A stretch of DNA of 62,030 bases. Origin: a virus. Taxonomy: Duplodnaviria; Caudoviricetes. The DNA lies in IMG/VR virus record IMGVR_UViG_3300046167_000632, positions 1 through 62,030 of that record; one strand, 5' to 3'. The translations under genes were made by a program, and so were the position numbers. The notes below the pieces were generated by a model. It was given only the letters and a program-made list of their open reading frames with translations, was not told the DNA's origin and did not search any database. Below, piece by piece: positions 2,116 to 60,163 of the stretch. Every line of letters starts with the position of its first letter. The stretch's first letter is position 1.

Positions 2116-2342
2116 TGGGTTCTGTTATAAGAAAAATAAGTATAGGTTCAGACTATAAGAATGATGCAATGCATTACTCTGTAGGTCAAGAAGTATATGG
2201 CGGTCACAAGATAGCTTATATACTGCTGAGCGAAGAAGATAACTCTTATAATATACACATCAAAAAAAACAATGAGGTAATGCCATGGAAGAAGTTTAAT
2301 TCTAACATGGCAATATCCATTGAATACGATCTTCAGTATTAA
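2115..2342 (+). CDS. hypothetical protein
   Basis: 75-aa ORF coupled by TAATG overlaps at both ends. Confidence 0.7.
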   Translation: MGSVIRKISIGSDYKNDAMHYSVGQEVYGGHKIAYILLSEEDNSYNIHIKKNNEVMPWKKFNSNMAISIEYDLQY

Positions 2343-2947
2343 TGAGAAGTGTATACGACTTTATTGTAGAGCCAATAGGAGAGAGATACGACAACGAGTT
2401 AAAAATAGGTGATAAGAAATTAGTTTTAAATTCTAAAATAGAAAGTCACAAGTTTATAAATAATAAAGCTAGAGTGATATCTGTGCCAATAGCCTTCAAA
2501 ACCCCTATAAAAATAGGTGATGAGGTTATTATTCACCACAACGTATTTAGAAGATACTATAACCAAAAAGGTAAAGAGGTAAATAGTAGTAAGTACTTTA
2601 AAGATAATAAATATTTTTGTCAATTAGATCAAATATATTTGTATGGTAGGGATAACTCGTGGAAACCTTTTAATAATAGATGCTTTGTAGCGCCTGTACT
2701 TAATAAGGATGAGTTAGAGCTAAAGAAAGATAAAAACCATGTTGGAATACTAAAGTATGGTAATAGTTCCTTAGAAGCTCTTAAAATAAACGAAGGAGAT
2801 GTTATAGGCTTTACACCTAACAGCGAATTTGAATTTGTCGTTAACGATGAATTATTATATTGTATGAAATCAAAAGATATTGTAATTAAATATGAGCACG
2901 AAAAAAACAAAGCTCAGTATAATCCAAGCTGGGCAAAAAGCAGTTGA
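2342..2947 (+). CDS. GroES-like (tandem co-chaperonin fold) protein
   Basis: Two GroES-like halves: 'ARVISVP...IKIGDEVII' and 'GILKYG...INEGDVIGF...EFVVNDELLYCMKSKDI'. Confidence 0.55.
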   Translation: MRSVYDFIVEPIGERYDNELKIGDKKLVLNSKIESHKFINNKARVISVPIAFKTPIKIGDEVIIHHNVFRRYYNQKGKEVNSSKYFKDNKYFCQLDQIYLYGRDNSWKPFNNRCFVAPVLNKDELELKKDKNHVGILKYGNSSLEALKINEGDVIGFTPNSEFEFVVNDELLYCMKSKDIVIKYEHEKNKAQYNPSWAKSS

Positions 2948-19363: not shown

Positions 19364-20920
19364 ATGGCACTAATAGAAGTAAAATACTATAACTCATTCA
19401 CCTTAAGGAAAAGTGTAGACTCAAACAGCGACATAAAATGGTTTGGTTCTAGAGGTATACCTCAATCTTTAGGTGGCTGGTACCAGACCGGTAATGTTCC
19501 AGAGGATGATAATGACCTAAACTGGGCTATTGAAGAGTCTAGAATTAGAGGCGGTTATAATAATACTTCAACTTCTTTAGGTGCTAAAGCTTACTTAGTA
19601 GAAGATGAGCCTAGTGGTAGTGTTAGAGGTAATGCTATGATATATTCAGGTATATATAACTCTAGAACAGGTATAAATCAAACAAATCAATTTTCTGTAG
19701 GTGAAGAAATAACTAAAGCAACTGATCCGGCTAACGGTAGTATACAAAAGCTATACGCCGAGGATTCTAATTTGGTTATATTTTCAGAGAAAAAAGTAAG
19801 TAGAGCTCTTATTGATAAAGACGCTATATATACGGCTGAAGGGGGAGGTACTTCTGTTAGTCAACTAAACCTAGTGATTGGTCAAATAATACCTTACGCT
19901 GGAAACTGGGGTATAGGAACAAATCCAGAAAGCTTTGCTGTATACGGTTATAGAAAATACTTTGTAGATAAGAACAGAGGAGCTGTTTTAAGGTTGTCTA
20001 GAGACGGTATAACTGAAATATCAAACTATGGTATGATTGACTGGTTTAGAGACAATCTGAGTATTGTAGACTCTTCAAGTTTTGGGCCAGGTAAAATAAT
20101 AGGTGGTTGGGATATATACACTAAGCAATATACTTTATCACTACAACCAAGCACGCCGCTTACATCAAGACCAGAGTTTGGTTCTTTAGAATATAGTACT
20201 CTTCAATTTGATGAAGCTGTTTTAGGTTGGCCTTCTTTTTATACGTTTAAACCTAGATTTACTTTTAGCCTAGCAAACAGAATGTACAGCATAGGTAATC
20301 AAGCTGGTAATTGGAACAAACTATATGTACACAACAGCACAAATGTTGATAGAGCTGAATTCTACGGAGAGTATAATAACTCAAAAGTAACTTTTGTAGT
20401 AAATCCAGAAGTAAGTACAAGTAAAGTTTTTAAAACAATAAGCTATGAAGGTAGTAATGGTTGGGAAGTTTCAGAATATGTTTCAGATGTTACAGGTGTT
20501 GATAGCTATGAGTTGGATAGTGGCGGAAATCCTATATGGATTTTACCACCTAGTTTAATAGATACTACAAACCCAATAAGTAGTTATTATGAAGGTGAAT
20601 ACATAATAAACCCTATACAATCAAGCTCCACATATAACGAGCCTGTTTATAGACCAGACTATGTTAGTACTTTTGGATCTAATAACCCGCCTTATAATAA
20701 AGAATATGCTGGTTTTGTTAGAAAAGAAAATAAATATTATGCTAATCTAGTAAATAATAGCGAAGGTCAAACAATGCCTGGAGAAATTATATTCGGAGAA
20801 GACATGACGGGTATAAAAGGTTACTATTGCACTGTGACTTTACAAAACGATAATAGTACTAACCCCGGTGGAGCTAAAGAGCTTTTTGCTGTAAATTCCA
20901 CTTTTGTCGTTAGTAGCTAA
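19364..20920 (+). CDS. tail stabilisation-type protein, C-terminal partner
   Basis: 'GIGTNPESFAVYG..YFVDKNRGAVLRLSRDGITEIS' and 'KVFKTISYEG' motifs. Confidence 0.6.
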   Translation: MALIEVKYYNSFTLRKSVDSNSDIKWFGSRGIPQSLGGWYQTGNVPEDDNDLNWAIEESRIRGGYNNTSTSLGAKAYLVEDEPSGSVRGNAMIYSGIYNSRTGINQTNQFSVGEEITKATDPANGSIQKLYAEDSNLVIFSEKKVSRALIDKDAIYTAEGGGTSVSQLNLVIGQIIPYAGNWGIGTNPESFAVYGYRKYFVDKNRGAVLRLSRDGITEISNYGMIDWFRDNLSIVDSSSFGPGKIIGGWDIYTKQYTLSLQPSTPLTSRPEFGSLEYSTLQFDEAVLGWPSFYTFKPRFTFSLANRMYSIGNQAGNWNKLYVHNSTNVDRAEFYGEYNNSKVTFVVNPEVSTSKVFKTISYEGSNGWEVSEYVSDVTGVDSYELDSGGNPIWILPPSLIDTTNPISSYYEGEYIINPIQSSSTYNEPVYRPDYVSTFGSNNPPYNKEYAGFVRKENKYYANLVNNSEGQTMPGEIIFGEDMTGIKGYYCTVTLQNDNSTNPGGAKELFAVNSTFVVSS

Positions 20921-23653: not shown

Positions 23654-26600
23654 ATGTATACTTACAAAGATGCTTCATACACTGACGATCAGATAAAAAA
23701 AGCAGCTGAGCAATCTAATATGACTGTTAAAGAATATTTGAAAAAGCTAGAAGGAGATAAAGATCCTGAGCCTAAGATAAAAGACGGTGACTTGCTTGAT
23801 CCAAATTTTCAACAAGACGCTGCAGCGGGTGCGAATGCGGGGTCTCAACCAATGACAGCATCACAAGCGGGATATGTAGAAACAGAAGATACGGAATTAC
23901 TCTCGGAAGATACTTCTTCGGATTCAGTAAAAGTTAAACTACCTAAAGATAGAAAATACGGTAAAATTTTTGAAATTCCAAATTTTAAAAAACAATCACC
24001 TAAAGATATAGCTAATGCTTATAATCAAATGTATGGTGGTAAGGATGGTGGATTTGAATTTACTTCAAATGTAAATAACGTAACTATAAAAGCTTTAAAC
24101 GGTGAATCTATAACGGTAAATACTAAGGGTCTTTCAAATCCAATGGCTCAAGCGCGTATGAGGCAAGCTGATCCGTTCGATTTGTCAGGTAGTAAAACCT
24201 CTCCCCAGCAGGGTATTGGAGACGATCCCCAAGAAGTTATAAATAATTTTCTAAAAGAAAACTTCAATGAGGATTTAAATGTACAAAATCAAAAAAATAT
24301 TAAAAAATTTGAAAGTTCTATAACTGACAATATAGAGCAATTGGCTTATGATTATATTGAATCTGAAGATATTCCTTATGATCCCACTATGCCTATAAAC
24401 TCTTTAATGAAGTCAGATGGTTTTAGAGATTATGTAAGAAAAAACTCCGTTGAGAAATATGCTGAAAATAGAGACATATCAGGCTCTGGTTTTTTTGGTA
24501 GTATAAATTCTGAAGACATTGGCTTAACAGGTACTCAACCTGATAAATTAGTAGATAAAATGTTGCAAGACATGTCTGCTAAAGAAGAGCAATTAAATGA
24601 ATATAATATTATTGAGCAATATGTTAAACCGCTTAAAGAGTCTGGAAATTGGTTAGAAGCTAGTAACAGAGAGAAGTTGCAACATATAAATAGTATAAAA
24701 GACCCTAAACAAAAAGAACTTGCCAAGGTTAATGATAGATTAATTAAAATAAAAGAAAGCCTAAATCAACCTAATACAGGTGTTGGTGATGTGTCTCAAA
24801 GTGCTTTATCAGATGAATTTGAAAAACTAAAAGAAAGAGCTTCGCTTCTATTAAAACAAGCTATAGATGAAGATGCTGAGTTTTTATTTGCCTCAGACGG
24901 AACTAGAATTTCACCTGCATTAGCTAAAGCAAGTGGTGTAGATGTTGTTGATTTAACAAAAGACTATGATATAGCTAAAGTTGAGTTAAAAAAGAAACTA
25001 GATACCTCAGACTCTCAAACAATACAGAATGATTATAGAATACACTTAGCTGAATTTAGTGGTTTTCAAGAAGAGATAAATACTCGAAAGTTTGATATTA
25101 AAATCAAAGCTGGATTCATGCAAGAAGGTTCACCATTAGCCGAAAAATTATTTGATAGAGGTTATTCTATGATTGATACTAAAGGCAAGGAAACAACTTC
25201 AGAGTACGCAACAGAGGGTGTTATAAAAGGAGTTACGTTAAAAGACTTGATGGCAGTACAGCCTGGTTTTGCTACAGATGAAATAGTTATATCTAAGCCT
25301 GAAAGTAGACCAGGTGAAGCTACTATAACTATGAGTGATCTAGCTGGTTATGTAGCAAACACAAGACAAACTCAAAAAAGATTATCTACAGAACATGCTG
25401 CTTGGAAACAATTATATCTATTAAATGTAGATCCAGGTTCTATAAAAGCCAATGACATAGTTAGTCAAGGTGGTAATTTTATGGCGGGTGTATTAGATGC
25501 TTTGCCTGGACAAGGCAATGCTGGTTCTGATAGTTTTAGAAAAGATAATTTATTTAGAACAGATAGAGATGACTTGAATGATGCTGAAGCATTAATAAAT
25601 AAAGTAAACTCAACACTAGAACCAGATCAAAAGCCTTTTGAGTTATCTGCTGAGCAAATGGATTCTTTCAAGCAAGGGTTCGGAGAACAGTTTTGGACTG
25701 GTCTAGGTGGTTTTGTACCTATGATCGCGGAATTAGGTTTAGTTAGTGCCATGACTGGAGGTATGGGTAATTCTTTTGGTGTAGCTAACTACTTAAGTAA
25801 GTTAAAAAATGTAACCTACTTAGCTAAAACTGCTACAAAAGGCGCTACGCCTATATCTAGAGCTGTTGTAGCTGCTAAAGCTAAACAAGCTAAAATGAGT
25901 GTTGATGCGTATGTTAAGTCTCAAGGTTTAAGGAAGGCCACAGGTACTGCATTTAACAAGGCTCAAGCATTGTTTATTCAAGGAGCTCAAGAGGAAGGTA
26001 AGATGAAATTACTAAAATTTTTTGGCGTTGATATGCCTACTGGCGCAGGTGCTGGTTTTGTAATTGGTGGTCACGCTATGAGAAAAATATTACCTACTAA
26101 TGTGTTTAAAGGTTTCTCTGGAGCCGCAGCGATGAATACTGCTTTAGAAAAAGGTTTATACTCCGGTTTAGGTGGTGCTGCTGGCGCACAAACAGCTGCT
26201 CCATTAGAAGCCCTAATAGCTGACCTTCAAAACAAAAAATCTTTCGACACTTTTGTAGAGGAGAAGTATGGTGATATGGAAGACTGGGCTAAGCACGCTT
26301 TTATGGAGGCTTTGCAGTTTAGTGTGATTGGATTAACACATGCTAGTAAGGCTGACAGGAGCTTGACTATGCAGTCTAAAAGAAATCTATTACTTAGAAC
26401 AAACAAGGAAATAACTGACAGGTTAGAGAGAGGAGATGTAACAGATCAACTAGGTAACCAATTTCAATTAAGAAATGAATTAATAAATCAAATAAGAGTA
26501 GCTGAAAATAGAGAAAGATTCTTAGATAAAAATGTGTTGGCAGCGGAGACTCAAGGTTTGTTACAGAAATTTAACAAGCAATACAAAAAAGAAAATGGCA

Positions 26601-29600
26601 CAGATGCTTTTACTATGAATGTATCTACCAATGGTGAAGGCATGAAGCTAGGTGAAGGAGAATCAGCAGCCGTTACAAAACGTAATGGTAAACTACATGT
26701 GGATGTTGATGTGTCTAAAATGAATGAAGGTACACTTCCTCATGAAATATATCACGTTGTTTCGCGTTTAACTTTCGGTAAAGACGTAGGTGTACAAAAA
26801 GCACTACAAGAAGGATTAGCTAAGTCTGTTGGTAAAATGGATTTTGAAACTGTTGATCCAAGAACTGGAGAAATAAGAAATATAGAAAACTTACCTGAAG
26901 CAGTTAAAGAAGCTTACGAAAAAACACAAGATAAGGATTCAACTTTTGAGGAATTTAACGCTAACTTAATTGACTTGCTAAGTAGACCTGAAAATAGAGA
27001 CATGTTAATAGAAAACAACGTCTTAGGATCTCTAAAGCAAAATATAAATACTTTTTTAGAAAAATCTTTAACAGGTACTGCTTTAGAAAATACAAAGCTA
27101 GGTAAGGTTTTATTACCTGAACTAAATAATCCTGATGCTGTTGTCAAGTTTTTATCTAGACTAAGTAAAGACTTTGGTAAAGGTAACTATAGCCCAAAAT
27201 TAATAAAGCGATTTCAAGATATAGAAATAACTAAAGACGGTAAGAAACTAATTGAGAAACAGACTGGTAAGGTATTAAACATAGATAAAACTGCTCAAAA
27301 AGAGTTAAAACAAGAGTCTTTAGACCTATCTAATGCAAATAAAAAAGCTTTTGAAGAGTTTGAAGCAACTGGAAACAAATCGGATCTTATAGGTAAGGTT
27401 TATGAAAATAATCAAGGTTTAATACAAAGCTTTGTAAATAGAAAATTTGTAAAAGGATTAGGCGTATCAAGAGAGATGTTTGAAGGGGAGGTTGGATCAG
27501 AGATATACGATAAAATTCTCGGTACTTATTTAAAAAGAGATGCTAAATTAAAAGACGTGCCGTTTGGCGCTTATGCTAGACAAGCCTTGTTTGGTGGCGG
27601 TGCTTTTGGTGGAGGTAGACTTGGTAATATACTAAAAAGACTAGGCCAGCAAGGTGACTTATTTAATAAAGATCTTGAAAGTAAAGAAGCACAATCTGTG
27701 ATGTCTGAGGAGACTAGAGATTTTGATGAAAAAATTGTTTCGGAAAACAAAAAAACAGATCCTAAAGAACTACAATTAAGTATAGATGTTGTAAATGATT
27801 TAGTACCTGAAGTACAGAAAGATTTACAAGAAAAAAGCTTAACTAAAGAAACATATAAATCTTTAAGATTAGGGGAAAACGCTGCTAAAGCTCTAGCGAA
27901 GGCATACGATATACGTGAAAAAGATAAAACAACATCTGATGGTAAAAAGGTTAAAGGAGATTTACTACCAGAGTGGTTCACGGTACCCGCTAGAAACTTA
28001 CCCCAAGGTTCTATGGAAGGTTTTAGAAAATTAAGATCTGAGCTAAACAAAAATGCTCAAATGGTACTTAATATTTTACCTGAAGGTTACACGTTGGATA
28101 AAAAGTCTACAGGTGTGCCAAACTCTATACAAGAAGCATTTTACAATAAAAGAAAAATAGGTAGTAAGAACGTATATGAATTAAAGAAAAACATAAGTAT
28201 AAAGGATGTAAAAGATTTACTAAAAGAGCCAGAAGGTAAATTATATAGAGATAAACAAGTTCAACAGATAAAAGGCTTAGCGGAGTTAGTGTTTAGAGGT
28301 CTGGTGAATAACGTTGCTAGATCAAATATGAAAATAGAAGGAGCAACAGCTATAGAGTTACAGAAGTTAGCTGATGGTAAAAATCCTATGCTAGCTCAAC
28401 AGGTGCTAGGTAAATTAAAAAATACACCTGGACTAAACGAAGTTACTATTAAAAGATTAATTGGTAATTTTTTAGTAGATAGAGAAAAGTTAAGAGAAAC
28501 TAATCCTACTTTTGTAGAAAGATTTGAAAGCGAAATTATACAAGATAATATAGCTAAGGCTGAAGAAGGCAAAGCTGACGCTCCAACATTTAAGACTTCA
28601 GATAAAGCTGATATTAAAATAGCGGAGATAAATGGTGCGCCTAAAGGCGTTGATATAAGCAATATCATAGATGGCAACACCGGTAAGTCTATGCGTTCAA
28701 CAGAGACTTTTAAAAGAAAAACTGGTAAGTTTAAAAAAGGAGTATTTATAAAAGGTACTGAAGGTCCTGAGATGAAAAGATCTATATTTGATACAGCTAG
28801 ACTTGAAACCTTTTTAGATGGAATAAGTGAACTTTCAAAGTATTACCCTGAAGATTTACAGAAATATTTTACTAAAGAGGTTCTACTACAGTCGTTTGGA
28901 AGTACTAGTAGAGGTACCGCTAGAAATGTAGGTAAGGATGCTAGAAAAATAACCACAGAAGGTAAGTTGATGTCAGAGAGTGATCTTAGTAAAGGTCAGT
29001 ATGAAAGAATAACAGATAACCTAGGAAAGCTATATAAAGAAGGTGTATTTGATAATATAGAGCCTGGAGATTTTATGAGTGATGCACAGCAAAAGAATGC
29101 GTTACAAAAATTTCAAAATACCGGAGATATAAATGTTCTTAATAAATACATAAATTCTAAAGATAACGCATATAAATCAGATGTTTATTACGCTATGGGC
29201 GTTGCTAAGCAAAAATATTTATATGATGCTAAAACTTCAGCTGAATTCGAAAAAAGAGCAAAAGTTATATATCAATTAGCAGCTGAGAATAGTGGAGCTA
29301 CTTCTGGTTATGGTAGACAGTTTGTACCTATAATGGCTGTAAAGAAAACAGGTGAACCTGGTAGAATGAAGTTGGAACATTTAAAGTCCTCCTTAGAGCA
29401 GTCGATGCAAGAAGCTAAAGCTATTGTAGAAGGTAGATGGATGAAAGATGGTAAAAAAATAATGAACGACTATAAGGGTATTATATCTTTCAAAAAATAC
29501 CTAGACGTAATAGACAAGTTAGGTGGTGTTACAAATACTTCTGGTTTAGCTAGGATGGTTTTAGATTTCGAAAACTTAAAAGACTACGTAACTGTTGAAA

Positions 29601-32600
29601 GTGGTTTTAAAGAAACTCTATACGATAAATTAATGACTGATAATGCTCAGCGTGTTGGAGCAAAATTAAGAGAGCTAAATGTGCCGTGGATGAAAGACAA
29701 GGTTGCTGCAATATCTCTAGAACCTAGTAAATCTAATGAAGTTTTACTAAAAAGTTCTTTAGATAATAAAGCAGATGTTAAGTCTAGCTGGAAAGCCAAC
29801 GTTGAGTTGTCTAAGAAAGCAGGTACTTTAGACAATAAAAACTCTAGTAATGCTGAATTACTTGAAAATTTAAAAAATAGAGATAAAGCTATTAGCTTAG
29901 CTCAGAAGAAATTAAAAGAAACTAAAAAAGCTAGAGTCTTTGATTTTGATGATACGCTAGCTAGAACTAAAAGCAACGTGCTGTATACAATGCCTAATAA
30001 TGAAGGAGGTTTCAGCAAAGGTTCTACTAAATTAAAAGCTATATTTATGGTTGGTGGTCCTGGCGCTGGTAAAACAAACGTAGGTAAAGGACTACAGCTA
30101 GGTAGAAGAGGTTATAAAGTAGTTAATCAAGATATAGCTCTTGAAGCTATGAAAACAGAATCCGGATTACCTGCTAATGAATCAAACTATACAGCTGAGC
30201 AAAGATCAATTAGGTCTAAGTTAGGTTCTGCCGCTAGAAAAGCAGCTGTAGCTAAGTTCGATAAGTATGCCGCTAATGGAGACGGTATGGTAATTGATGG
30301 CACTGGCGCTTCATATAACGCTACTACTAAAAAGATAAAAGCATTACAAGAAAAAGGCTATGAAGTACATATGGTTGTAGCTAACACACCGTTAGAAACA
30401 GCATTAGAAAGAAACAGAGCTAGAAAAGAAAGATCACTAGAAGATTTTATTGTAGAAAAAACTTATAACCAAGTTCAAGAAAGTTTAGCTAAATATAGAG
30501 AGGATTTTGGAGATCGTTTATACGAAATAAATACTGAAGCTATAGAGTACGGAAAACCACTTCCAGGTGATTTCCTGCAAGGAGTTTACAAAGGAATAAA
30601 CGCTAACAAAGTAGGTAAAGTAGATGCTGCTACATTTGCTAAAGAAGCGGGTAATATGGAAGCTCAAGGAGCTCAATGGGATTTCTCTGAGTTTAGTAAG
30701 GTGATGCAAGGTAGCAAAGGACCTTTATTCGAAGTAGCTAAGTCTATAAGTGAAAGCCCAGGTGAAAGAGATATGTTCGTATTAACAGCTAGACCAGCAG
30801 ATGCAGCTCCAGCTATAAAAAGTTTTTTAAAAGAACTAGGTTTAGATATACCGTTAGAAAACATAACAGGTTTAGCAAATGGAGCTCCATCGGCTAAAGC
30901 TAACTGGATGCTTAAGAAAGCAGCTGAAGGTTATAATGACTTTTACTTTGCTGATGATCACTTAGGTAATGTTAAAGCTGTTAAAGATGTATTAAGTGTA
31001 GTAGATGTTAAAAGCAAAGTACAATTAGCATTAGCACAGAAAAAGCTAGGAAAAACATTTAATGATATAATACAGGAAAAAACAGGTATAGCTTCAGAAA
31101 AAGTTTTTGGAGAAGCTAAAGCTGAAATAATGGGTAAAAGCAAAGGTAAGTTTGATGTATTTATATCACCAACCGCTGAAGACTTTGCTGGTCTACTATA
31201 CAAGACTTTACCAAAAGGTAAAAAAGGTGAAAATGCTCTTAAGTTCTACAAAGAAAACTTATTCGATCCATTTGCTAGAGCTGAGGACAATATTACTAGA
31301 GATCAAGTAGCATTAAGTAATGATGTTAGAGCTTTAAAAAATAGACTGGGTATAATACCTAAGAAACTAAGAAAGAAAAATGAAACAGGTTTTACTAACG
31401 AGCAGGCTTTAAGAGTTCGTATGTGGACAAAAATGGGTTTAGAAGTTCCTGGCTTAAGCAAGTCTGATACTAGCTGAACTTAATAAAGTCATAAAAGATA
31501 ACCCAACATATGAAGCTTTTGCAAATGAACTTCTATCAACAACTAAAGGTGATGGTTGGGCTGAACCAGGCGAAAGGTGGCTTAGCGGTACATTGACTAG
31601 TGATGCTATGGCATTACTTGGTAAAGTAAAAAGAGCTAAGTACTTGGAGCAGTGGAAGCAAAATAAAGATGAAATATTCTCAAAAGCTAATTTAAATAAA
31701 CTAGAAGCAGCTTATGGTAAGAAGTACAGGAAAGCATTAGAAAAGACCTTAGAAAGGATGCAGTCTGGAAGAAATAGAAATTCTAAAAACACGGCTGGCG
31801 ATAGAGCTTTAGATTATATAAATAACTCTGTTGGTGCTATAATGTTTTTAAATACAAGATCAGCTGTTTTACAAACAATTTCTAGTATAAACTTTATAAA
31901 CTGGACAGATAATAATCCTTTAAAAGCTGGCGCTAGACTAGCGGATGTAAAGCAATATTCTAAAGATTTCTTAGAGATAATGAATTCTGACTACTTAGTA
32001 GCTAGACGTGATGGATTAAAATTAAATGTAAGTGAGGCTGAAATAGCTGCAGATACAGGCGCTAAGGGTATAATAAATACAATACTAAAAAAAGGTTTTG
32101 TATTTACTAAATACGCTGATAGTTTTGCTATAGCTTCAGGTGGTGCTACTTTTTATAGAAATAGAATAAACACTTATAAAAAGCAAGGGCTATCTGAGAT
32201 AGAAGCTAAAGAAAAAGCTTTTATAGACTTTAAAGAAATATCTGAAGAATCTCAACAATCATCTAGAACAGATAAGATAAGTCAACAACAGGCTAGTAAC
32301 TTAGGTAGAGTTATTTTAGCTTTTGCTAATACACCAATGCAGTATGCTAGGTTGCAGAAAAAAGCTATGTTAGACCTCGCTAATAGAAGAGGGGATTGGA
32401 GAGAACATACATCTAAAATAGTTTACTACGGATTTGTACAAAACTTAATATTTAATGCAATACAAAATGCTTTATTTGGTTTAGCCTTCGCTGACGATGA
32501 GCAAGATGAAAAGTTACTGTCTAAATCAGGAAGAGTTGCTAACGGTATGGCTGATTCATTACTTAGAGGTACTGGTATACCAGGAGCAGTAGTTGCTTCA

Positions 32601-37816: not shown

Positions 37817-38272
37817 TTATTTTCTTTTCGAAAGGATTAGCTCTATCGTTCTGTCGCATTCTTTTTGATTTTGTGGTTTATATAATGTAACTGTTGGAAA
37901 CTGGTTCATAACTAATCTTTTGAATAACTTCCATCTCATTGGAAAAGACTCGTTAGCTCTACCTTTTGTTTCTATTATAAAATCATCTCCTATGAAATCA
38001 GGTGTGTACTTAATAGGTAATATACGTTTACATCCTCTATTTTTGTATTCACCTTTTCCATTTGATTGTCTTTCATATACTTCATTTTCAAAATGAAAGC
38101 CACTCAGTAGTACAAATGTTTCTCCTTCGTACTTGGCTTTTATCTTAGCTTTTTTTAACGCCATATACATATAACGTTCTAAGCCTGAAGCAAATTTGAT
38201 CCCGTCATAAGTAACTTTCTTACTTACAACAGGACCTCTTTTCTTTTTAAAAGGTCTCTTACCTCTTATCAT
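37817..38272 (-). CDS. T7 endonuclease I-like PD-(D/E)XK nuclease
   Basis: FASGLE...YE...YTPDF...IIETKG. Confidence 0.8.
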   Translation of the reverse strand: MIRGKRPFKKKRGPVVSKKVTYDGIKFASGLERYMYMALKKAKIKAKYEGETFVLLSGFHFENEVYERQSNGKGEYKNRGCKRILPIKYTPDFIGDDFIIETKGRANESFPMRWKLFKRLVMNQFPTVTLYKPQNQKECDRTIELILSKRK

Positions 38273-38618
38273 GATAACCGATTACTTCATAGTTAACGTC
38301 TAAGTCTCCTAAGTTGTCGTAATGTAAACCGCTATTACCGTTTTGTGATATAACCTTCATTCTTTCATCTTCATAAGCATGATGCTTTAACATCAACTCT
38401 TCAACCTCATCTGACAAGCAGCGTTTAGCAGCTTCAATATATAATAATGCATCCATTAACTCTTCTTGAACATCTACTAAAAACCTATTAAGATCTTTCT
38501 CTTGGCCCTCTATCTCTTGCATCATTGTAGCTCCATACTTTTTCTGACCTACCAAACTACGTTCATCCATTTTTCTAAGTACTTTTCGTACTATTTCATC
38601 CTTTGTTTTTATTTTCAT
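38259..38618 (-). CDS. all-alpha NTP pyrophosphohydrolase-like protein
   Basis: 'GQKKYG...QEELMDALLY' acidic helical motif. Confidence 0.55.
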   Translation of the reverse strand: MKIKTKDEIVRKVLRKMDERSLVGQKKYGATMMQEIEGQEKDLNRFLVDVQEELMDALLYIEAAKRCLSDEVEELMLKHHAYEDERMKVISQNGNSGLHYDNLGDLDVNYEVIGYHDKR

Positions 38619-38620
38619 AA

Positions 38621-39370
38621 TTATAAGCTTTCTTGTTTAACAAATGTTCCATTAACCATTTTACCCTGTCTAGACTTTATAACGTTATACGCGCTGTCTA
38701 TACATTTTTCTATGCTATAGCCTCTAAGCTCTGCTAAGTTAGTTAATACAACAACCATATCGCCAATAGCATCTATTACTTCAGGTTCATCGTTCTTTAA
38801 TATAGCCTGAGCAAGCTCACCAGCCTCTTCCATAAGTTTCACAAACTGAGTTCTGGCATCACCTGATTTATATATACCCTTGTCTCTAGCCCATTGACGT
38901 ATATCATCAAACCTGTTTGATTCTGTATTTTGCTCTATAAACTTATTAGCGTATGCTTTATTATATATATAACATCTGTTTACGTTAAACATAGATGTTC
39001 TAGCGTTTTTAACTATCCAGTCAATAGTTTGATTGTCTAAGCTAAATACTCCATTATTGGTTGACCATTTTAAGCCTATATTATCCATAAGTTGTCCTTT
39101 AAGCTTATTTAAAGGCACTGGAAATGTTGATGTTTGTTCTGTTGCGTTTATATTCATTTGATTAAATAGTTTTTTATATGGTTTTATATCTACTTTGTAG
39201 CCATAAGACTTTTGAAGTTCTATTTCCTTGTCAGATATATAATCTATATCATCGCTAGTAAGTAGAACTTCGTATTCGTCTGGTCTGTAACCCTGTTGGA
39301 TAGTTACCCGACTATTAAGATCACGTGTAACACCGATCTTTTTACCAGGTATGTGGTATAAATAATACAT
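38621..39370 (-). CDS. MazG-like NTP pyrophosphohydrolase with GIY-YIG-like N-terminus
   Basis: C-terminal KLMEEAGEL...DAIGD; N-terminal YYLYHIPGKKIGVT..L..R; probable start at 39370. Confidence 0.75.
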   Translation of the reverse strand: MYYLYHIPGKKIGVTRDLNSRVTIQQGYRPDEYEVLLTSDDIDYISDKEIELQKSYGYKVDIKPYKKLFNQMNINATEQTSTFPVPLNKLKGQLMDNIGLKWSTNNGVFSLDNQTIDWIVKNARTSMFNVNRCYIYNKAYANKFIEQNTESNRFDDIRQWARDKGIYKSGDARTQFVKLMEEAGELAQAILKNDEPEVIDAIGDMVVVLTNLAELRGYSIEKCIDSAYNVIKSRQGKMVNGTFVKQESL

Positions 39371-39374
39371 AATT

Positions 39375-40016
39375 TTATAGTTTATTATTATATAGGTGCA
39401 TGTTATGAGCGTGGTGATAATACCAGCCCGTTTCAATAGACAGCCTGTCTGCAACCATTTCCTGCAATGATGCAAATTGATACTGATCATTACAGAAACC
39501 GTACCAGATGTCATTAGAACGCATATAAACTGACATACACAGTCTATTGTTTATGATCGTAAATTGCACAGCATAAGTACATGGCGTGTCATAACCGTAG
39601 TCACTTATTTCTTTAGCATCATATATAGATATAGCTGCTTGTCTAGTGCTTGGATCTCTTCTAAGTATATCAACGACATTATCTAATTGATTTCTACGCT
39701 GCCATTGGTAACCATAATTAGAATTAACCTTACGATCTTCATTTGCCATACGTTCCCATATAGGTGGTATACTACCATATAATTCTCCTAATTTGTCAAT
39801 ACTAGGATCACCAGATAAATACCAAGCCCATTCAGCTGCGGCGTATTTTTTATTCCACTTACGTTCAACATTTGTTATAACTTTATCTGAAGGATTATCT
39901 ATATAAAAACCACAGTTGAATATAGCCCTTGTATCACCAAAGTCAATACCTTTTTGCAGTATTTCATCTATAACACCTTCATATGCTTCATTAGCATTGT
40001 TAAATCTTGTTTTCAT
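39375..40016 (-). CDS. thymidylate-synthase-superfamily enzyme, T4 gp42-like dCMP hydroxymethylase type
   Basis: NSNYG, PCT, MRSNDIWYGFCND (Asp at the dUMP/dCMP specificity position), NMHLY. Confidence 0.75.
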   Translation of the reverse strand: MKTRFNNANEAYEGVIDEILQKGIDFGDTRAIFNCGFYIDNPSDKVITNVERKWNKKYAAAEWAWYLSGDPSIDKLGELYGSIPPIWERMANEDRKVNSNYGYQWQRRNQLDNVVDILRRDPSTRQAAISIYDAKEISDYGYDTPCTYAVQFTIINNRLCMSVYMRSNDIWYGFCNDQYQFASLQEMVADRLSIETGWYYHHAHNMHLYNNKL

Positions 40017-44654: not shown

Positions 44655-45275
44655 TCATAATTGTTGGTTTAATAATTCTTTTTCTTTCTTCAATGTATTG
44701 TTCATGTTTCTGTATATAGTTCTAGTTGAGCAATCAAGCAAACCAGCTAGACCGCTTATAGTTATTTTCTTGCCAAACTCGTTAATATCTAACATACATT
44801 GGTAAATTGCTTCACTATCTACATTACTAGTTTTACCTATTAACTTACCGACTATACTTAGTTTCTCACTGACAGTCAGCATGTTATGATCTTTAAATAT
44901 AACTTTACGTAATTTATTTCTAGGTGGTTCATCAAGATCACTCATTAATACATCATATACTATTTTTTCATAGTGCCAAGAGCTAATATCAAAGGTAACA
45001 AATCCATTTTTTTTATCACATATAACTTTAGCCATGTTATCAAACTGATCTTGATTCATAGTGGTATTTAAATACCATAAAACATACAAATGCCATTTAA
45101 GACTTTTGTAAGAGGTTATCTTAGCGTTGGTGTTAAATAATGTGTAGCATTCATAAGTACCATTTTCAAAGAACATATACTTTTCAGTTTCTATAGTAGG
45201 TATATCGCTTATAGGGTCTTGTCTATATACGATGCCTCTGTTTACTAAATATTTTATGTTTCTTGTATATGACAT
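44655..45275 (-). CDS. DNA-binding protein with C-terminal helix-turn-helix
   Basis: 'ITISGLAGLLDCSTRTIYRNM' HTH; palindrome overlaps its start codon. Confidence 0.65.
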   Translation of the reverse strand: MSYTRNIKYLVNRGIVYRQDPISDIPTIETEKYMFFENGTYECYTLFNTNAKITSYKSLKWHLYVLWYLNTTMNQDQFDNMAKVICDKKNGFVTFDISSWHYEKIVYDVLMSDLDEPPRNKLRKVIFKDHNMLTVSEKLSIVGKLIGKTSNVDSEAIYQCMLDINEFGKKITISGLAGLLDCSTRTIYRNMNNTLKKEKELLNQQL

Positions 45276-45370: not shown

Positions 45371-45868
45371 CTAAAGTTGGTTGTCAAGTTGTGTACGTAT
45401 AATTTTCTGCTCATCTTTATTTTTTATTTTGTGTTTTTCATTTTCATAATAGTTCCAGTATGCTGATATACTATCGTCTTGCACCTTGTATTCTTCTGGC
45501 ATACATTGAGGAGGTTCTGTAAAAGTACCCACCGGCATACCTAGAGGTAATTGTTTTAAAACTTCTTTGCATTTCTTAATTGTTAAATGTGTTTTGTTAT
45601 ATCTTTTAGTATATTCTTCTCCTAATGCTAGCATGTGTTTATACAACCACATATACTGTTTAGCATTTTGCCTACACCATATAGTCGATGGATGATTATA
45701 ATGCGCTTTCTTATACGGAACTTCTACCATAGGGTAATTTAGTTCCGCATAATGATGATGCGCAGTACAAAGCATCTGAGCTGATTCTAAGATCATCTTA
45801 ACTACATGCTTATTGTATTGTATTCTAGCAGCTTTAACTGGATCTCTGTGTAAATAAAATATATTCAT
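45371..45868 (-). CDS. pyrimidine-dimer DNA glycosylase-like protein
   Basis: MNIFYL...KHVVKMILESAQML...H.NHP..IW pattern. Confidence 0.7.
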   Translation of the reverse strand: MNIFYLHRDPVKAARIQYNKHVVKMILESAQMLCTAHHHYAELNYPMVEVPYKKAHYNHPSTIWCRQNAKQYMWLYKHMLALGEEYTKRYNKTHLTIKKCKEVLKQLPLGMPVGTFTEPPQCMPEEYKVQDDSISAYWNYYENEKHKIKNKDEQKIIRTQLDNQL

Positions 45869-47935: not shown

Positions 47936-48199
47936 TTAATCTAGTAATACCATATATGCTTCAACGTTATTCTTGCGAAACCAAGATAATGCTTTATGAA
48001 ACTCGTTAATTTGTTTTTCAGTAACTGTTTTAGGTGCTACCTCCATTACATATTGACTACCCATTATGAAGTCATACATTGATAGCTCGACAGCACTAAG
48101 CTCGTAGCTATCTCCACTGAAAGGGTTTGTTACTAATTCACCTTTGTCGTAAATCATACCTTTAAACCACTTAGGTACTGTTTGTTCTTTAGTTTTCAT
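47936..48199 (-). CDS. hypothetical early protein
   Basis: 87-aa ORF ending AYMVLLD. Confidence 0.65.
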   Translation of the reverse strand: MKTKEQTVPKWFKGMIYDKGELVTNPFSGDSYELSAVELSMYDFIMGSQYVMEVAPKTVTEKQINEFHKALSWFRKNNVEAYMVLLD

Positions 48200-48857
48200 T
48201 TTTTAATTCTTTAAATATTAATTCACCTTTAATGGCTCTTTCGATAGTTAGACCATAATGATTAGCTACAATCTCATACCTTGCTCTGTCTTTAATTATT
48301 TGACTAGCATAGTTTAAGTACCTATAGTCTTCATCTACTGTTAGATTTATAGCTCCTATATATAGTTTAGGTAGATCTTTGTTAAACTGATCGTCTTGAG
48401 AGATCATCTCTATGTATTGCAGTGTATTTATAGGGTTAACTACTTTATGGCTATAACCTTCATCAAGTAGCTCATCTATAATTTCGTCTTCGATTCTACA
48501 TAATAGATCTTCGTAGTGTCTAGTGATAGCATCTTCAACAAAGTCATAGTTGTCACAGTATATCTGATTGTAGTCAGGTATTGCTTCGTATAACACATCT
48601 GTAAGTTCGCTTTCATAGTAGTATACGTCTTCACTAACATTTATACTTTTGTCATTAGCAGTAGCAATCCACACAGAGTAACCATCAGCTGTTGATTCTT
48701 CGTATACACTGAAGTCAGGGTTTCGCCATTGATCAGTTATTTCACATTCGTAGTGTGCAAGCACTTGGTTTCTAGCGTGCTCATCATCGCAACCTTCGAT
48801 CCAGCCTTTTTCAGCCATTTTCTCAGTTATTAACTTATCTGTTATATACTTAGTCAT
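48189..48857 (-). CDS. acidic hypothetical protein
   Basis: 222 aa, D/E-rich. Confidence 0.7.
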   Translation of the reverse strand: MTKYITDKLITEKMAEKGWIEGCDDEHARNQVLAHYECEITDQWRNPDFSVYEESTADGYSVWIATANDKSINVSEDVYYYESELTDVLYEAIPDYNQIYCDNYDFVEDAITRHYEDLLCRIEDEIIDELLDEGYSHKVVNPINTLQYIEMISQDDQFNKDLPKLYIGAINLTVDEDYRYLNYASQIIKDRARYEIVANHYGLTIERAIKGELIFKELKNEN

Positions 48858-49618: not shown

Positions 49619-50071
49619 TTATATTCTTTTATATAATACACCATCAACTTCGATTACATCTTGCACTGAGTCTAAGTCGTAGTTTCTTATTAAGTATTTT
49701 TCTAGATACACTAATCTAGCAAGGCCGTTAGTTATTTTTACTCTTTGTACACCTGTGCAAGAGCTCACATTTAACTCGCTATTGTCACTAAGTGTCATAT
49801 AATAACTAGTTGTTGGTCTTTGAGGATTTATTTGGTAGCAAGATAAATCATTAAACCTACTTCTTATTATTTTACGAACCATACCTGATTTGTATGTAGC
49901 GAATTTACATAAACCATACTTTTTGTGGTTAAGTTGAAACGTTCTAGTTCCGTTTTTACGCTGTGTATTTGTAGTTACATCAGTTAGTAGTGGGTACTTA
50001 GCAAGCATTAACTCTACATACTTGTCTTCTAGCTCTTTTCGGCGAGCTTGCCAATGTGTTAGTGTATTCAT
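49619..50071 (-). CDS. hypothetical early protein
   Basis: Probable ATG at 50071 (MNTLTHW). Confidence 0.65.
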   Translation of the reverse strand: MNTLTHWQARRKELEDKYVELMLAKYPLLTDVTTNTQRKNGTRTFQLNHKKYGLCKFATYKSGMVRKIIRSRFNDLSCYQINPQRPTTSYYMTLSDNSELNVSSCTGVQRVKITNGLARLVYLEKYLIRNYDLDSVQDVIEVDGVLYKRI

Positions 50072-50072
50072 A

Positions 50073-50261
50073 TTATCTTCGTCTTTGTGATTTATGTACA
50101 AGCGCACTTAGCTCTTGACTTACTATTTGAATTGTATTACCTGTTTTATGGTAAGTAATTGGAACATAAGAATGTTTTTTTACTTCAGAACAGGGTGGAC
50201 ATGTCTTATATCCTAAGTTTAATCGGTAAGGGTGGACTTCGTCGCCGCATTTACAGTACAT
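50073..50261 (-). CDS. small zinc-finger protein (DksA/TraR-like C4 pattern)
   Basis: CKCG....RL..G..TCPPC; follows repeat copy 50281-50322. Confidence 0.55.
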   Translation of the reverse strand: MYCKCGDEVHPYRLNLGYKTCPPCSEVKKHSYVPITYHKTGNTIQIVSQELSALVHKSQRRR

Positions 50262-50307: not shown

Positions 50308-50733
50308 TTATTTTGTTTGTAAATAATTTAATACACTTGACCAATCAGGAAATTTATCACTACCAAACTGTATAAGTTCGCCACTGAACTCACCCGCACC
50401 GTTAGCCGTTCTGTCATCTATCAAGTAATCTCCACTTAATAAGTTTTTGTGGTTAGATAAGATCAACTTTTTATAAGCGTGTTTACCTAAGTGTTTACTT
50501 ACCCACATTCTCTTATGAGTCCATGATTCAGGCATACCCCATGGAGCAGTGGATAGTATATAAACATCAAAGCCATCGGTTTCGCATAACTTTTTAAATG
50601 CTTCAACCGCATAACCTATAGGTCGTAAGTCTTTAAATATATTTGAGTGCCAACCTGTTCTATTTAGCTCGGTTTGTAGATCAACAAGGACACCGTCCAT
50701 GTCTATGTATATTATCTTATTCTTGTTTTTCAT
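50308..50733 (-). CDS. 5'(3')-deoxyribonucleotidase (HAD, NT5C-like)
   Basis: IDMDGVL, ILST.P, K..W, LIDDR. Confidence 0.85.
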   Translation of the reverse strand: MKNKNKIIYIDMDGVLVDLQTELNRTGWHSNIFKDLRPIGYAVEAFKKLCETDGFDVYILSTAPWGMPESWTHKRMWVSKHLGKHAYKKLILSNHKNLLSGDYLIDDRTANGAGEFSGELIQFGSDKFPDWSSVLNYLQTK

Positions 50734-53475: not shown

Positions 53476-53703
53476 CTATTTTTCTAGTACTTCTCGAGCG
53501 ATCACTGGTACACTAGTTGAAGAAGTGTAAGACTTGTACTTAATGAAGCACGCCATATTTTCCAGTTTAGACTTCATTACTTCATACACTTTATCGTGAT
53601 TGTAGGTAACTGTTTTACCATTTTTGAAGTTGACAGTGATTAACTGATTTTTACCGATTAGAGATTTTCTGATTACAAATCTTTTTGAAATTAAAGTTGA
53701 CAT
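53476..53703 (-). CDS. early protein, paralog of 54857-55087
   Basis: About 51/75 identical residues by hand count; has its own promoter repeat. Confidence 0.8.
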   Translation of the reverse strand: MSTLISKRFVIRKSLIGKNQLITVNFKNGKTVTYNHDKVYEVMKSKLENMACFIKYKSYTSSTSVPVIAREVLEK

Positions 53704-54856: not shown

Positions 54857-55087
54857 TTAATCAGTTATGATTAATGATCTTGTAACTACAGGCATTGAAG
54901 TTGATGAAGTGTATGATTTATACTTAGCCCAACAGTTCATTGTTTCAAGTTTTGGTTTCATAACATTGTATACATCGTCGTGATTGTACTTTGAAACTTT
55001 TCCGTTTTTGAATGTTACTTCAATGATTTGATTTTTTCCGATTAATGATTTGCGAACAACAAATCTTTTTGATTTTAAGATTGACAT
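54857..55087 (-). CDS. early protein, paralog of 53476-53703
   Basis: Shared SKRFV.RKSLIGKNQ and KYKSYTSSTS blocks. Confidence 0.8.
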   Translation of the reverse strand: MSILKSKRFVVRKSLIGKNQIIEVTFKNGKVSKYNHDDVYNVMKPKLETMNCWAKYKSYTSSTSMPVVTRSLIITD

Positions 55088-58609: not shown

Positions 58610-60163
58610 ATGGATGCAATAGTTAAAAATCTAAACTTCGGAGAGAAGGCTAGAAAAAACGTCTATGAGGGTATAGACAAGTTAACAAAAGCTGTAAGCT
58701 CTACATTAGGTGCTAGCGGTAAATGCGTTATGCTAGAAGATCACACTGGTAAACCAATAATAACAAAAGACGGTGTTACAGTGGCAGAGTCAGTTATATT
58801 AAGAGATCCAGTTGAAAACATGGGAGCTACGCTTTTAAAAGAAGCGGCTCGTAAAACTGTTAAAGAGGCTGGCGATGGTACAACTACAGCTACAGTACTT
58901 GCTCATGCAATACTTACTGAGGCTTACGAAGTCTTAGATAAAACAAATAGTAGAGATTTAAAAGAAGGTATTGACAAGTCTGTTGAAGCTGTTGTAGATT
59001 ACTTAAAAGAGAACTCTGTAGAAGTAACTGATGACATGCTAGATCAAGTAGCTACTATATCAACCAACAACGATCCTGAATTAGGTAAGATAATTGGTGA
59101 TGCTTTTAGGTTAGTTGACTTAACAGGTGTTGTCGTAATGGAACCTACAGAAGATAATGAAACTTCGGTTGAATTAGTCGAAGGTGTAGAGTATGACAAA
59201 GGACTTGTAAACTCACATTTTGTAACAAGCAAAACAAAAAGAGCTGCAGAACTTGAAAACGCTTTAGTGTTAATAGTAGAATCACCAGTTGAGTCTATAA
59301 GAAAAATACAAAGTGTTTTAGAATATGTTATAAAGAATAACAAGGCTTTATTAGTCATAGCTGATTGTGAACAAAGCGTTATATCGGCACTGGCAATGAA
59401 TAAGGTTAAGGGTAATATAAAAGTAAACGTCATAAACGCACCTACATATGGTGTAAGCAAAAAAGATACATTAAATGACTTAGCACTATTAACTGGCGCT
59501 ACAGTTATAAATGAAGATCTTGGAGATGATATGGACCTTATACAACCAGAATATCTAGGAAGTTGCTTAAAAAGCATTACAACAGACCTAGAGACTATAA
59601 TACAAGTAGAGGATAATAATCCAGATGTAGAAAAACTAGTCAAAGACTTAAGACATCAAATAGAAACAACTAAAAATCCTAACGAGATAATAAGACTAGA
59701 AAGAAGACTTGGTAGAATATCGGCTAAGGTTGCTATTGTCAAGGTTGGGGCAAATTCTGAAATAGAATTAAAAGAAAAACAGGATAGGGTTGAAGACGCT
59801 ATCTGTGCTACTAAAGCCGCAATAAAAGAAGGTATTGTTTCTGGTGGTGGCATTGCACTCCTAAATGCATCAAACAAAATAAAAGCAAAAACAGTAGGGG
59901 AGAAAGTTTTATTGAAGGCAATAAAGGCTCCATTTAAAACAATACTAAGTAATGCCGGTATAGATAAATACGACAAGCCTGATGCTGATGGTAAAGGATT
60001 AAACGTGGTTACAGGAAATATGGTAAATATGATAGACTCAGGAATTATCGATCCTTTACTAGTAACTAAAAGCGCTTTAAGAAACGCGGCTTCTGTAGCA
60101 TCAACAATACTATCTACTGATTGTGTAATTAATAACTTGAGGATTGATGATAGCAATAGGTAG
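58610..60163 (+). CDS. groEL: chaperonin GroEL
   Basis: [44 protein letters not shown]. Confidence 0.97.

Follow-up and report, generated by a model that had tools for sequence, protein, structure and literature searches.

Published work already covers hydroxymethylases of deoxycytidine monophosphate (dCMP) that belong to the thymidylate synthase (TS) family, together with the Asp177/Asp143 signature that marks them and the finding that they occur alongside PRA-PH/MazG domains in modified viral contigs; homologues in GenBank phages are already annotated as deoxycytidylate hydroxymethyltransferases. In the MetaGPA study of metaviromes (eLife 2021, PMC8670742), TS domains, position 177 and PRA-PH domains were associated with cytosine-modified contigs, and TS positions 177 and 147 were the residues most associated with such contigs. 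Here we describe a related locus in the IMG/VR virus record IMGVR_UViG_3300046167_000632 (Caudoviricetes); the stretch analysed (hereafter the window) is the entire record of 62,030 bases, with an estimated completeness of 96%. The span 38259-40016 consists of exactly three closely packed genes, one of which encodes, judging from its sequence, a likely dCMP hydroxymethylase, and another a protein with a MazG-type domain. Our preferred reading, to which we assign a probability of about 0.6, is that the whole pathway ends in virion DNA that contains 5-hydroxymethylcytosine (5hmC). The three genes are:

39375..40016, minus strand: ThyA-like gene, 213 amino acids (aa), predicted dCMP C5-hydroxymethylase of the T4 gp42 type with a near-absent C-terminal tail
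38621..39370, minus strand: open reading frame (ORF) 2, 249 aa, three domains with a MazG-type NTP pyrophosphohydrolase at the end, candidate enzyme for converting deoxycytidine triphosphate (dCTP) to dCMP
38259..38618, minus strand: ORF3, 119 aa, conserved helical protein with no MazG support

The residues that separate the known activities of this enzyme family have been described for several members. According to PMC13326640, Asp177 (N177D) brings specificity for dCMP, at position 143 Leu is linked to methyl products and an acidic residue (Asp or Glu) to hydroxymethyl products, and D169N marks the newly found flavin-dependent 5-hydroxy-dCMP synthases. For the T4 enzyme, PMC6400193 reports that the incoming water is activated by Asp145, located three residues ahead of the catalytic Cys, that Ser94 and Tyr96 hold the second catalytic water, and that D145N, S94N and Y96F each abolish activity. 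The same article states that the hydroxymethylase dispenses with the C-terminal tail by which thymidylate synthase closes its active site for hydride transfer, and that K133 and A176 confer ribonucleotide preference on MilA, the A176S/K133R double mutant having the dCMP-type pair.

The ThyA-like protein belongs to the TS family far beyond chance (Pfam PF00303, Thymidylat_synt: E 4.2e-28, 98.7 bits, cut-off 24.3, residues 12-212), and its PHROGs match, phrog_160 at 8.8e-44, carries the label 'thymidylate synthase'. We aligned it with E. coli ThyA, T4 gp42, SPO1 gp29 and two Bacteroides phage homologues (from annotated records) in what we call alignment A1. An earlier note on this DNA, made by a model from the letters alone, had quoted two peptides and claimed that the enzyme is gp42-like. 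Both peptides lie within the 213-aa ORF at 39375-40016 (minus strand), and the alignment bears the claim out. E. coli GLPFN corresponds to GFCND in the window and to GFRND in T4 gp42, which places Asp at the position of E. coli Asn177 (T4 D179), and NSNYG is letter-identical in the window and T4 gp42, where E. coli has GPVYG. In E. coli numbering the window protein has E58, Y94, D143, C146, T147, R166, D169, D177, H207 and Y209, and all ten are the same in T4 gp42; they include the catalytic Cys (E. coli C146, T4 C148) as well as Glu58, Arg166, His207 and Tyr209. The residue run at the acidic site is D143-T-P-C146, and both S99-x-Y101 within NSNYG (Y101 aligned to E. coli Y94) and S167 are as in T4 gp42. 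The same ten positions read EYLCHRDNHY in E. coli ThyA (L143, H147, N177) and EYDCNRDNHY in SPO1 gp29 (D143, N177), a hydroxymethylase of deoxyuridine monophosphate; RB69 gp48, a 5-hydroxy-dCMP synthase that served as a control, has E143, N169 and D177. These three proteins agree with the published residue rules. After the H-x-Y motif (Tyr209) the window protein has a tail of 4 residues, compared with 28 in T4 gp42 and 55 in E. coli ThyA. The best solved relative by sequence was MilA (E 4.4e-21; T4 dCMP hydroxymethylase, 1.3e-12), and window Arg125 and Ser167, which align with MilA K133 and A176, make up the dCMP-type pair.

These residues bear on three other activities that the protein could have. 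An ordinary thymidylate synthase, giving deoxythymidine monophosphate to an AT-rich phage alongside ribonucleotide reductase, would agree with its being the sole TS-family gene (no second thymidylate synthase and no ThyX were found in the window), with its place near the ribonucleotide reductase genes and with the 'thymidylate synthase' label used by PHROGs and some sources. However, the canonical ThyA marks Asn177, Leu143, His147 and the C-terminal tail are Asp, Asp, Thr and none in the window, the best NCBIfam TS equivalog reaches 77.9 bits against a cut-off of 327, and Asp177 occurs in 129/129 nearest representatives, which makes an ordinary enzyme very improbable. A dCMP methylase would instead yield genomic 5-methylcytosine made at the nucleotide level. 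Asp177 alone is enough to give a thymidylate synthase dCMP methylase activity (works cited in PMC8670742), but position 143 is Asp and not the methyl-associated Leu, the water-holding Ser-x-Tyr is present and the hydride-sealing tail is missing; we consider this activity improbable. The earlier note had left the choice between 5hmC and 5-methylcytosine open. The signature favours 5hmC over 5-methylcytosine, since Asp rather than Leu stands three residues ahead of the Cys; the modification of virion DNA itself, which that note also proposed, is something we infer from such signatures together with a circumstantial comparison of restriction sites. Finally, a flavin-dependent 5-hydroxy-dCMP synthase like RB69 gp48 would share Asp177, an acidic residue at 143 and a short tail with the window protein. 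The D169N mark of such enzymes (RB69 gp48 / DLP3 gp80 type) sets it apart, since in the same alignment the window keeps Asp169 where the RB69 gp48 control has Asn, and the window is without arabinose or other sugar pathway genes. With Asp169 retained, the 5-hydroxycytosine route is effectively excluded.

For the predicted dCMP hydroxymethylase, the reaction can be drawn after the described enzymes. Cys146 would attack C6 of dCMP, while Asp177 would read and protonate the cytosine ring, and the one-carbon unit of methylene-tetrahydrofolate would go onto C5. Water, not hydride, would then quench the exocyclic methylene to give 5-hydroxymethyl-dCMP (5hm-dCMP), as the absent sealing tail, Asp143 and Ser99-x-Tyr101 together suggest.

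A search of 1.84 billion cluster representatives with the ThyA-like protein returned 8632 relatives at E <= 0.001; as another measure of group size, one search gave 7822 related proteins at E <= 1e-10, and 219 related stretches were found in IMG/VR. Residues were counted in the best 150 of the 8632 (50%-identity cluster representatives), using the 129 that are at least 190 aa long. Asp177 and Asp169 are present in 129/129, Asp three residues before Cys in 120/129 and Thr147 in 118/129, and many of these proteins have tails of 4-20 residues. Among the closest 90%-identity cluster representatives, the 12-residue signature plus the 4-residue tail was intact in 115/120. The phylogeny that the earlier note had suggested as a check came out on the side of gp42: FastTree, run on 135 sequences, places the window in a 22-member clade (support 0.978), which T4 gp42 joins at node support 0.978, ahead of SPO1 gp29, RB69 gp48 and E. 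coli ThyA. All but one of the members of this clade (21/22) have tails of at most 25 residues, and the 226-aa Bacteroides phage copy falls within it. The gene is intact and under purifying selection: 58 of the 80 related IMG/VR loci contain a 213-codon ORF without gaps, and for these the ratio of nonsynonymous to synonymous substitution rates (dN/dS) was 0.158 at the median and 0.242 at most. Although the Pfam PF00303 match covers the profile only up to position 214 of 266, we rejected the idea of a thyA that is truncated or split by an intron, because this short form is usual in the clade and selection on the gene is purifying.

T4 gp56 hydrolyses dCTP, which feeds the hydroxymethylase and drains canonical dCTP, and in phage S-2L a MazG-like enzyme reportedly feeds PurZ. 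The earlier note had proposed that two adjacent MazG-type proteins could remove dCTP at this locus. For ORF2 the MazG assignment is upheld by Pfam and by fold. The most likely start of ORF2 is the ATG at 39370, 4 nucleotides (nt) past the ThyA-like stop, and not 39514; on account of this ATG and of the homologues, the product is about 249 aa long and not the listed 297-aa frame that overlaps the ThyA-like gene. ORF2 adjoins the ThyA-like gene in 80/80 related loci. Its AlphaFold model (63 sequences; predicted local distance difference test, pLDDT, 87.9) has three domains:

39191..39370, minus strand: ORF2 N-terminal domain (aa 1-60), possibly GIY-YIG-like
38936..39148, minus strand: ORF2 middle domain (aa 75-145), a confidently modelled alpha/beta unit
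38624..38929, minus strand: ORF2 MazG domain (aa 148-249), with Pfam, PDB profile and fold matches

By both sequence and model, the C-terminal domain is a MazG/HisE-type four-helix pyrophosphohydrolase domain. ORF2 matched PF03819 (MazG) at 28.8 bits (cut-off 22), PF01503 (PRA-PH) at 23.9 bits (cut-off 21.3) and phrog_1992, and a PDB profile search with the ORF2 alignment found 1vmg at E 1.9e-8. The fold of the domain also matched 1vmg (VIA-align: Z 9.7, root-mean-square deviation 2.5 A over 81 aligned residues); the top ten VIA-align matches of ORF2 were all MazG, HisE or related NTP pyrophosphatases (Z 8.5-9.7), and Foldseek matches included DCTPP1, a dCTPase, from mouse and human, as well as the S-2L MazG-like enzyme. 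The acidic metal-binding motif of MazG proteins is E-E-x-x-E ... E-x-x-D. ORF2 has EEAGE ... EVID at this place, with E181, E182, E185 and D200 invariant in 63 sequences. No significant similarity to T4 gp56 was found by BLAST for either ORF2 or ORF3. By analogy with the enzymes named above, the ORF2 MazG domain most likely hydrolyses dCTP to dCMP and pyrophosphate, which would both feed the hydroxymethylase and drain competing dCTP.

The two other domains of ORF2 are less readily assigned. The N-terminal 60 residues are modelled as strand-strand-helix-strand-helix, and a Tyr, a Gly, Arg21 and Glu49 are invariant in 41 homologues. Both features agree with GIY-YIG nucleases, whose core is beta-beta-alpha-beta-alpha with conserved Tyr, Gly, Arg and Glu. 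The best Pfam matches of this domain, T5orf172 (0.095) and MUG113 (0.13), are both sub-threshold and are what we take to be GIY-YIG-clan families, and hhalign comparison with T4 SegA and SegF gave no support; a GIY-YIG-like nuclease is thus to be seen as a lead, not a result. The middle domain had zero Pfam matches at E <= 10. Foldseek and VIA-align results for ORF2 were filled by the MazG domain. If the lead were right, a tail-less hydroxymethylase would rely wholly on host kinases and the host replicase, and ORF2 would be bifunctional, its GIY-YIG-type nuclease cutting unmodified (host) cytosine DNA and its MazG domain converting dCTP to dCMP. This scheme is doubtful. Were it true, one polypeptide would unite roles that T4 splits between an endonuclease and gp56, and the lineage, which would be one of abundant aquatic Flavobacteriia phages, would have a minimal cytosine-replacement system, an extension that we hold to be equally doubtful.

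ORF3, which the earlier note had counted as the second MazG-type protein, does not bear out that assignment. Pfam and NCBIfam thresholds were unreached, PHROGs matches were only to families without an assigned function, an alignment of ORF3 with ORF2 (hhalign) had a probability of 0.4%, a PDB profile search gave nothing relevant, and its protein atlas neighbours are without family. The AlphaFold model (60 sequences) consists of two long helices at a pLDDT of 61.8, too weak for a fold search, and a homologue of ORF3 is present in an Elemovirus without a ThyA homologue. The protein is conserved nonetheless: it is present in 73/80 related loci, has a conserved core K-Y-G ... D-V-Q-E-E-L-M-D-A-x-L-Y in 60 sequences, and has at least 7999 relatives in a profile search of a 5.8-billion-protein set, with a Pfam domain in 0 of 120 among the matches listed. 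ORF3 homologues in the related loci vary by an optional C-terminal insert with a conserved G-Q-N-G-N-D-G-L-H-Y motif.

We then placed the locus among its relatives. The nearest GenBank relatives by large terminase are an uncultured podovirus from a spring (63% identity) and Flavobacterium Elemovirus phages (44%), followed by Maribacter, Cellulophaga and Tenacibaculum phages at 33-42% identity. None of the 7 GenBank relatives found via the terminase has a PF00303 gene or a PF03819 MazG, and so the module is an accessory of the window lineage. A nucleotide search of a phage collection gave only short matches, within the DUF1064 gene described below.

Cytosine replacement is a known kind of anti-restriction trick, one that the phage of the window probably uses, as its gene content suggests. 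For 4-bp palindromes, we set the observed counts against those expected from a Markov model. The window has an excess of GATC (246 observed vs 190 expected; observed/expected ratio, O/E, 1.29) and no C-containing palindrome is purged, the lowest ratios being those of CATG (0.64) and GGCC (0.66). Across the 70 related ThyA-positive loci with a length of 9 kb or more, the median O/E for GATC was 1.19 (range 0.97-1.58), and their lowest medians were those of CATG (0.70) and GGCC (0.72). In contrast, GATC is depleted in 7/7 ThyA-negative GenBank relatives (O/E 0.00, 0.27, 0.00, 0.57, 0.42, 0.49 and 0.40), and at least one site is wholly eliminated in 4/7. In the spring podovirus, neither CCGG (26 expected) nor GATC (199 expected) occurs at all. 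The Elemovirus likewise has no CATG (149 expected), CCGG (12), CGCG (11) or GGCC (27); Panino is without CCGG, CGCG and GATC, and phi38:1 is without CGCG. The window gave no Pfam match to a Dam, N6/N4 or C5 DNA methyltransferase. The absence of site purging would be consistent, as circumstantial evidence, with a ThyA-positive lineage shielded by a genome-wide base change. The total absence of some 4-bp palindromes from entire genomes of 60-77 kb among the GenBank relatives (GATC 0 of 199 and 0 of 263 in two of them) is in itself an unusually clean case of restriction avoidance.

The later steps of the pathway would fall to the host. It would take kinases and the replicase of the host to carry 5hm-dCMP into DNA, because the phage has no recognisable deoxynucleoside monophosphate (dNMP) kinase or DNA polymerase; as an outcome, some or all genomic cytosines would be 5hmC and shielded from restriction enzymes. 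The substrate and product of both enzymes, the incorporation into DNA and the protective role are predictions, and a number of points weigh against them. No dNMP kinase was found (the window has no stand-alone P-loop, and tblastn with the kinases of BF503P2 and RB69 gave no match), and in E. coli incorporation was at trace level without a cognate kinase and clear with one (PMC13326640). There is also no DNA polymerase of family A or B in the window, and tblastn with T4 gp56, T4 beta-glucosyltransferase and the BF503P2 carbamoyltransferase gave no window match. A position near the ribonucleotide reductase genes, a GC content of 34% and the status of sole TS gene are also the usual setting for an ordinary thyA. 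MazG nucleotide specificity is unreadable from sequence, and the fold matches of ORF2 include dCTPases plus enzymes with other substrates; moreover, an ORF2 homologue was looked for within 8 kb of the Bacteroides phage genes and not found, so that the ThyA-like/MazG pairing does not hold everywhere. Both the residue counts and the tree were drawn from the best matches to the window protein, a sample biased to like sequences. With regard to the palindromes, the comparison is confounded by differing hosts, 3/7 comparators are without complete site elimination, and the window shows a mild shortage of CATG (0.64) and GGCC (0.66). In 20 kb of T4, whose DNA contains hydroxymethylcytosine, the GATC count is 24 observed vs 62 expected, so site depletion and modification are not mutually exclusive.

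The missing kinase also bears on another reading, in which 5hm-dCMP is made and little or none of it enters DNA, the module serving to remodel or drain the dCTP/dCMP pool, possibly with a 5'-nucleotidase. No dNMP kinase was detected, one is needed for robust incorporation in E. coli (PMC13326640), and the window has a gene that would suit such a role:

50308..50733, minus strand: HAD-type 5'(3')-deoxyribonucleotidase-like gene (phrog_2643 '5'-3' deoxyribonucleotidase' 6.9e-11, phrog_420 1.4e-19)

It is possible that this gene is an accessory in nucleotide-pool remodelling; its link to the cluster is one that we infer. On the other hand, modified base could still be detected in the DNA of E. 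coli when the TS homologue was expressed by itself (PMC13326640). Among the genomes compared, the ThyA-positive clade is the only one without restriction-site avoidance. We know of no benefit of a free hm-dCMP pool, and pool remodelling without incorporation seems to us decidedly unlikely. A 2607-aa ORF at 23654-31477 (plus strand) includes an AAA_33/Zeta_toxin-like P-loop kinase domain (residues 2128-2270, ~30041-30472). As a candidate for the missing hm-dCMP kinase it was rejected as a conserved partner, since the equivalent giant ORF has the domain in only 2/33 other ThyA-positive genomes.

It is also conceivable, though unlikely, that 5hmC is only an intermediate which an unrecognised phage enzyme decorates after replication, as glucosyl-, arabinosyl- and carbamoyl-transferases do elsewhere. 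Most characterised 5hmC phages hypermodify further (PMC13326640, PMC8670742), many early ORFs of the window are without family (e.g., 44655-45275, 48189-48857 and 49619-50107), and a carbamoyltransferase lies beside the closest cultured homologue (BF503P2). However, the remark in the earlier note that no glycosyltransferase is visible held up: neither a glycosyltransferase nor a carbamoyltransferase was detected among the 48 window ORFs scanned with Pfam or PHROGs, or by tblastn with T4 beta-glucosyltransferase and the BF503P2 carbamoyltransferase. The GP88 protein (PF17338; without a solved relative), which the same note had put forward as a speculative hypermodification candidate, does not look like one, as it is present in only 5/33 near-complete related ThyA-positive genomes and 0/7 ThyA-negative relatives and was therefore rejected as a fixed partner.

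The cluster is located in the minus-strand arm of the genome, among early or replication genes. The gene order is primase-helicase, an 84-aa ORF, the ThyA-like gene, ORF2, ORF3, a DUF1064 nuclease-like gene, three small ORFs, and ribonucleotide reductase beta and alpha, which puts the ThyA-like gene a few genes upstream of ribonucleotide reductase in a genome of 34% GC. From the sequence, this arm looks like a single operon because start and stop codons overlap or sit 2-4 nt apart.

Several observations concern other parts of the genome. A 165-aa protein (45371-45868, minus strand) belongs to the pyrimidine-dimer DNA glycosylase family PF03013 (23.4 bits, cut-off 23; phrog_624 at 4e-47), and its gene adjoins an ATP-dependent ligase with an OB_2 domain. 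Two paralogous ORFs of 75-76 aa with near-alike sequences (53476-53703 and 54857-55087, minus strand) sit in the AT-rich 52-56 kb region that separates the divergent gene arms. The portal gene is in pieces (5381-5923, 6157-6483 and 6488-7519, plus strand): on the portal profile phrog_6547 (827 positions), a 180-aa ORF covers 3-166 and a 343-aa ORF covers 395-725, with a 108-aa ORF between them, and the split could be due to frameshifts, an insertion or sequencing errors. A GroEL-like gene (58610-60163, plus strand; phrog_5725 at 5.5e-134) and a GroES-like gene (2342-2947, plus strand; phrog_13932) are present, and the Elemovirus relatives are alike in this. A structural protein (19364-20920, plus strand) has a crAss-phage 'muzzle' C-terminal domain (PF25729 at 1.6e-11), which hints at a distant link to crAss-like podophages.

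If 5hmC is indeed present in virion DNA, a large, widespread group of uncultured aquatic phages would carry it with a far smaller gene set than the T-even phages. This would affect how such genomes behave in restriction-based, bisulfite and nanopore workflows, and would bear on how host restriction and modification-dependent defences shape infection. At 213 aa and without a tail, the enzyme would be among the smallest of the hydroxymethylase class and a compact candidate for making 5hm-dCMP. The contrast in palindrome purging between gene-positive and gene-negative relatives may also serve as a cheap genomic proxy for base modification.

When compared with known systems, the ThyA-like protein is like T4 gp42 (PDB 1b49 / 1b5e / 6a9a) in its fold family, the ten catalytic and specificity residues, NSNYG, MRSND...F-x-ND and the lack of a TS-type tail. 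It differs in that overall identity is ~25%, the tail is 28 residues long in T4 vs 4 in the window, and T4 Arg220 and the second phosphate-binding Arg (T4 R124) are Asn and Gln in the window; the window is also without the gp1-type kinase, gp56 homologue, glucosyltransferases and phage polymerase of T4. MilA, the cytidine monophosphate 5-hydroxymethylase of Streptomyces rimofaciens (PDB 5b6d / 5jnh), shares Asp at 177 and 143 and Thr after Cys, but has K133/A176 where the window has Arg/Ser, and its solved chains of 325-342 aa have a long C-terminal extension. ORF2 resembles T4 gp56 dCTPase, DCTPP1 and the S-2L enzyme in having a C-terminal MazG/all-alpha NTP pyrophosphatase fold (its matches include DCTPP1 and S-2L) next to a base-modifying enzyme; it has no detectable sequence similarity to gp56 and adds two N-terminal domains, one perhaps GIY-YIG-like.

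The 'cytosine modification network' of MetaGPA is represented in the window by a TS with Asp177 and non-His147, by PRA-PH/MazG and by an ATP-dependent ligase with OB_2, whereas no carbamoyltransferase or dCMP deaminase partner was found among the window ORFs scanned. Against this published background, the near-absent tail, the three-domain MazG fusion and a gene set in which no kinase, polymerase or decorating enzyme was found are mildly unusual. Among the papers listed by our literature searches, none ties Cellulophaga or Flavobacterium phages to cytosine modification, though such work may exist.

The closest cultured homologue is the 'deoxycytidylate 5-hydroxymethyltransferase' (226 aa) of Bacteroides phage BF503P2, which has 44% identity over its full length and the same signature and belongs to the same short-tail clade; its function is a putative one, from annotation. 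BF503P2 differs in that a second Asp177 TS copy, a P-loop kinase, a dUTPase and a carbamoyltransferase adjoin the gene. Two 'hypothetical' genes of this phage (within 2651-5927 and 8001-8681) are a carbamoyltransferase (Carbam_trans_C 3.4e-34) and a P-loop protein of the AAA_28 family, with the two Asp177 TS homologues and the dUTPase as neighbours. A TS paired with a carbamoyltransferase has been reported experimentally to make 5-carbamoyloxymethylcytosine from 5hmC (PMC8670742). From its gene content, BF503P2 probably makes carbamoylated 5hmC, a property unstated in its record, and by association this gene set would tie the short-tail clade to 5hmC chemistry.

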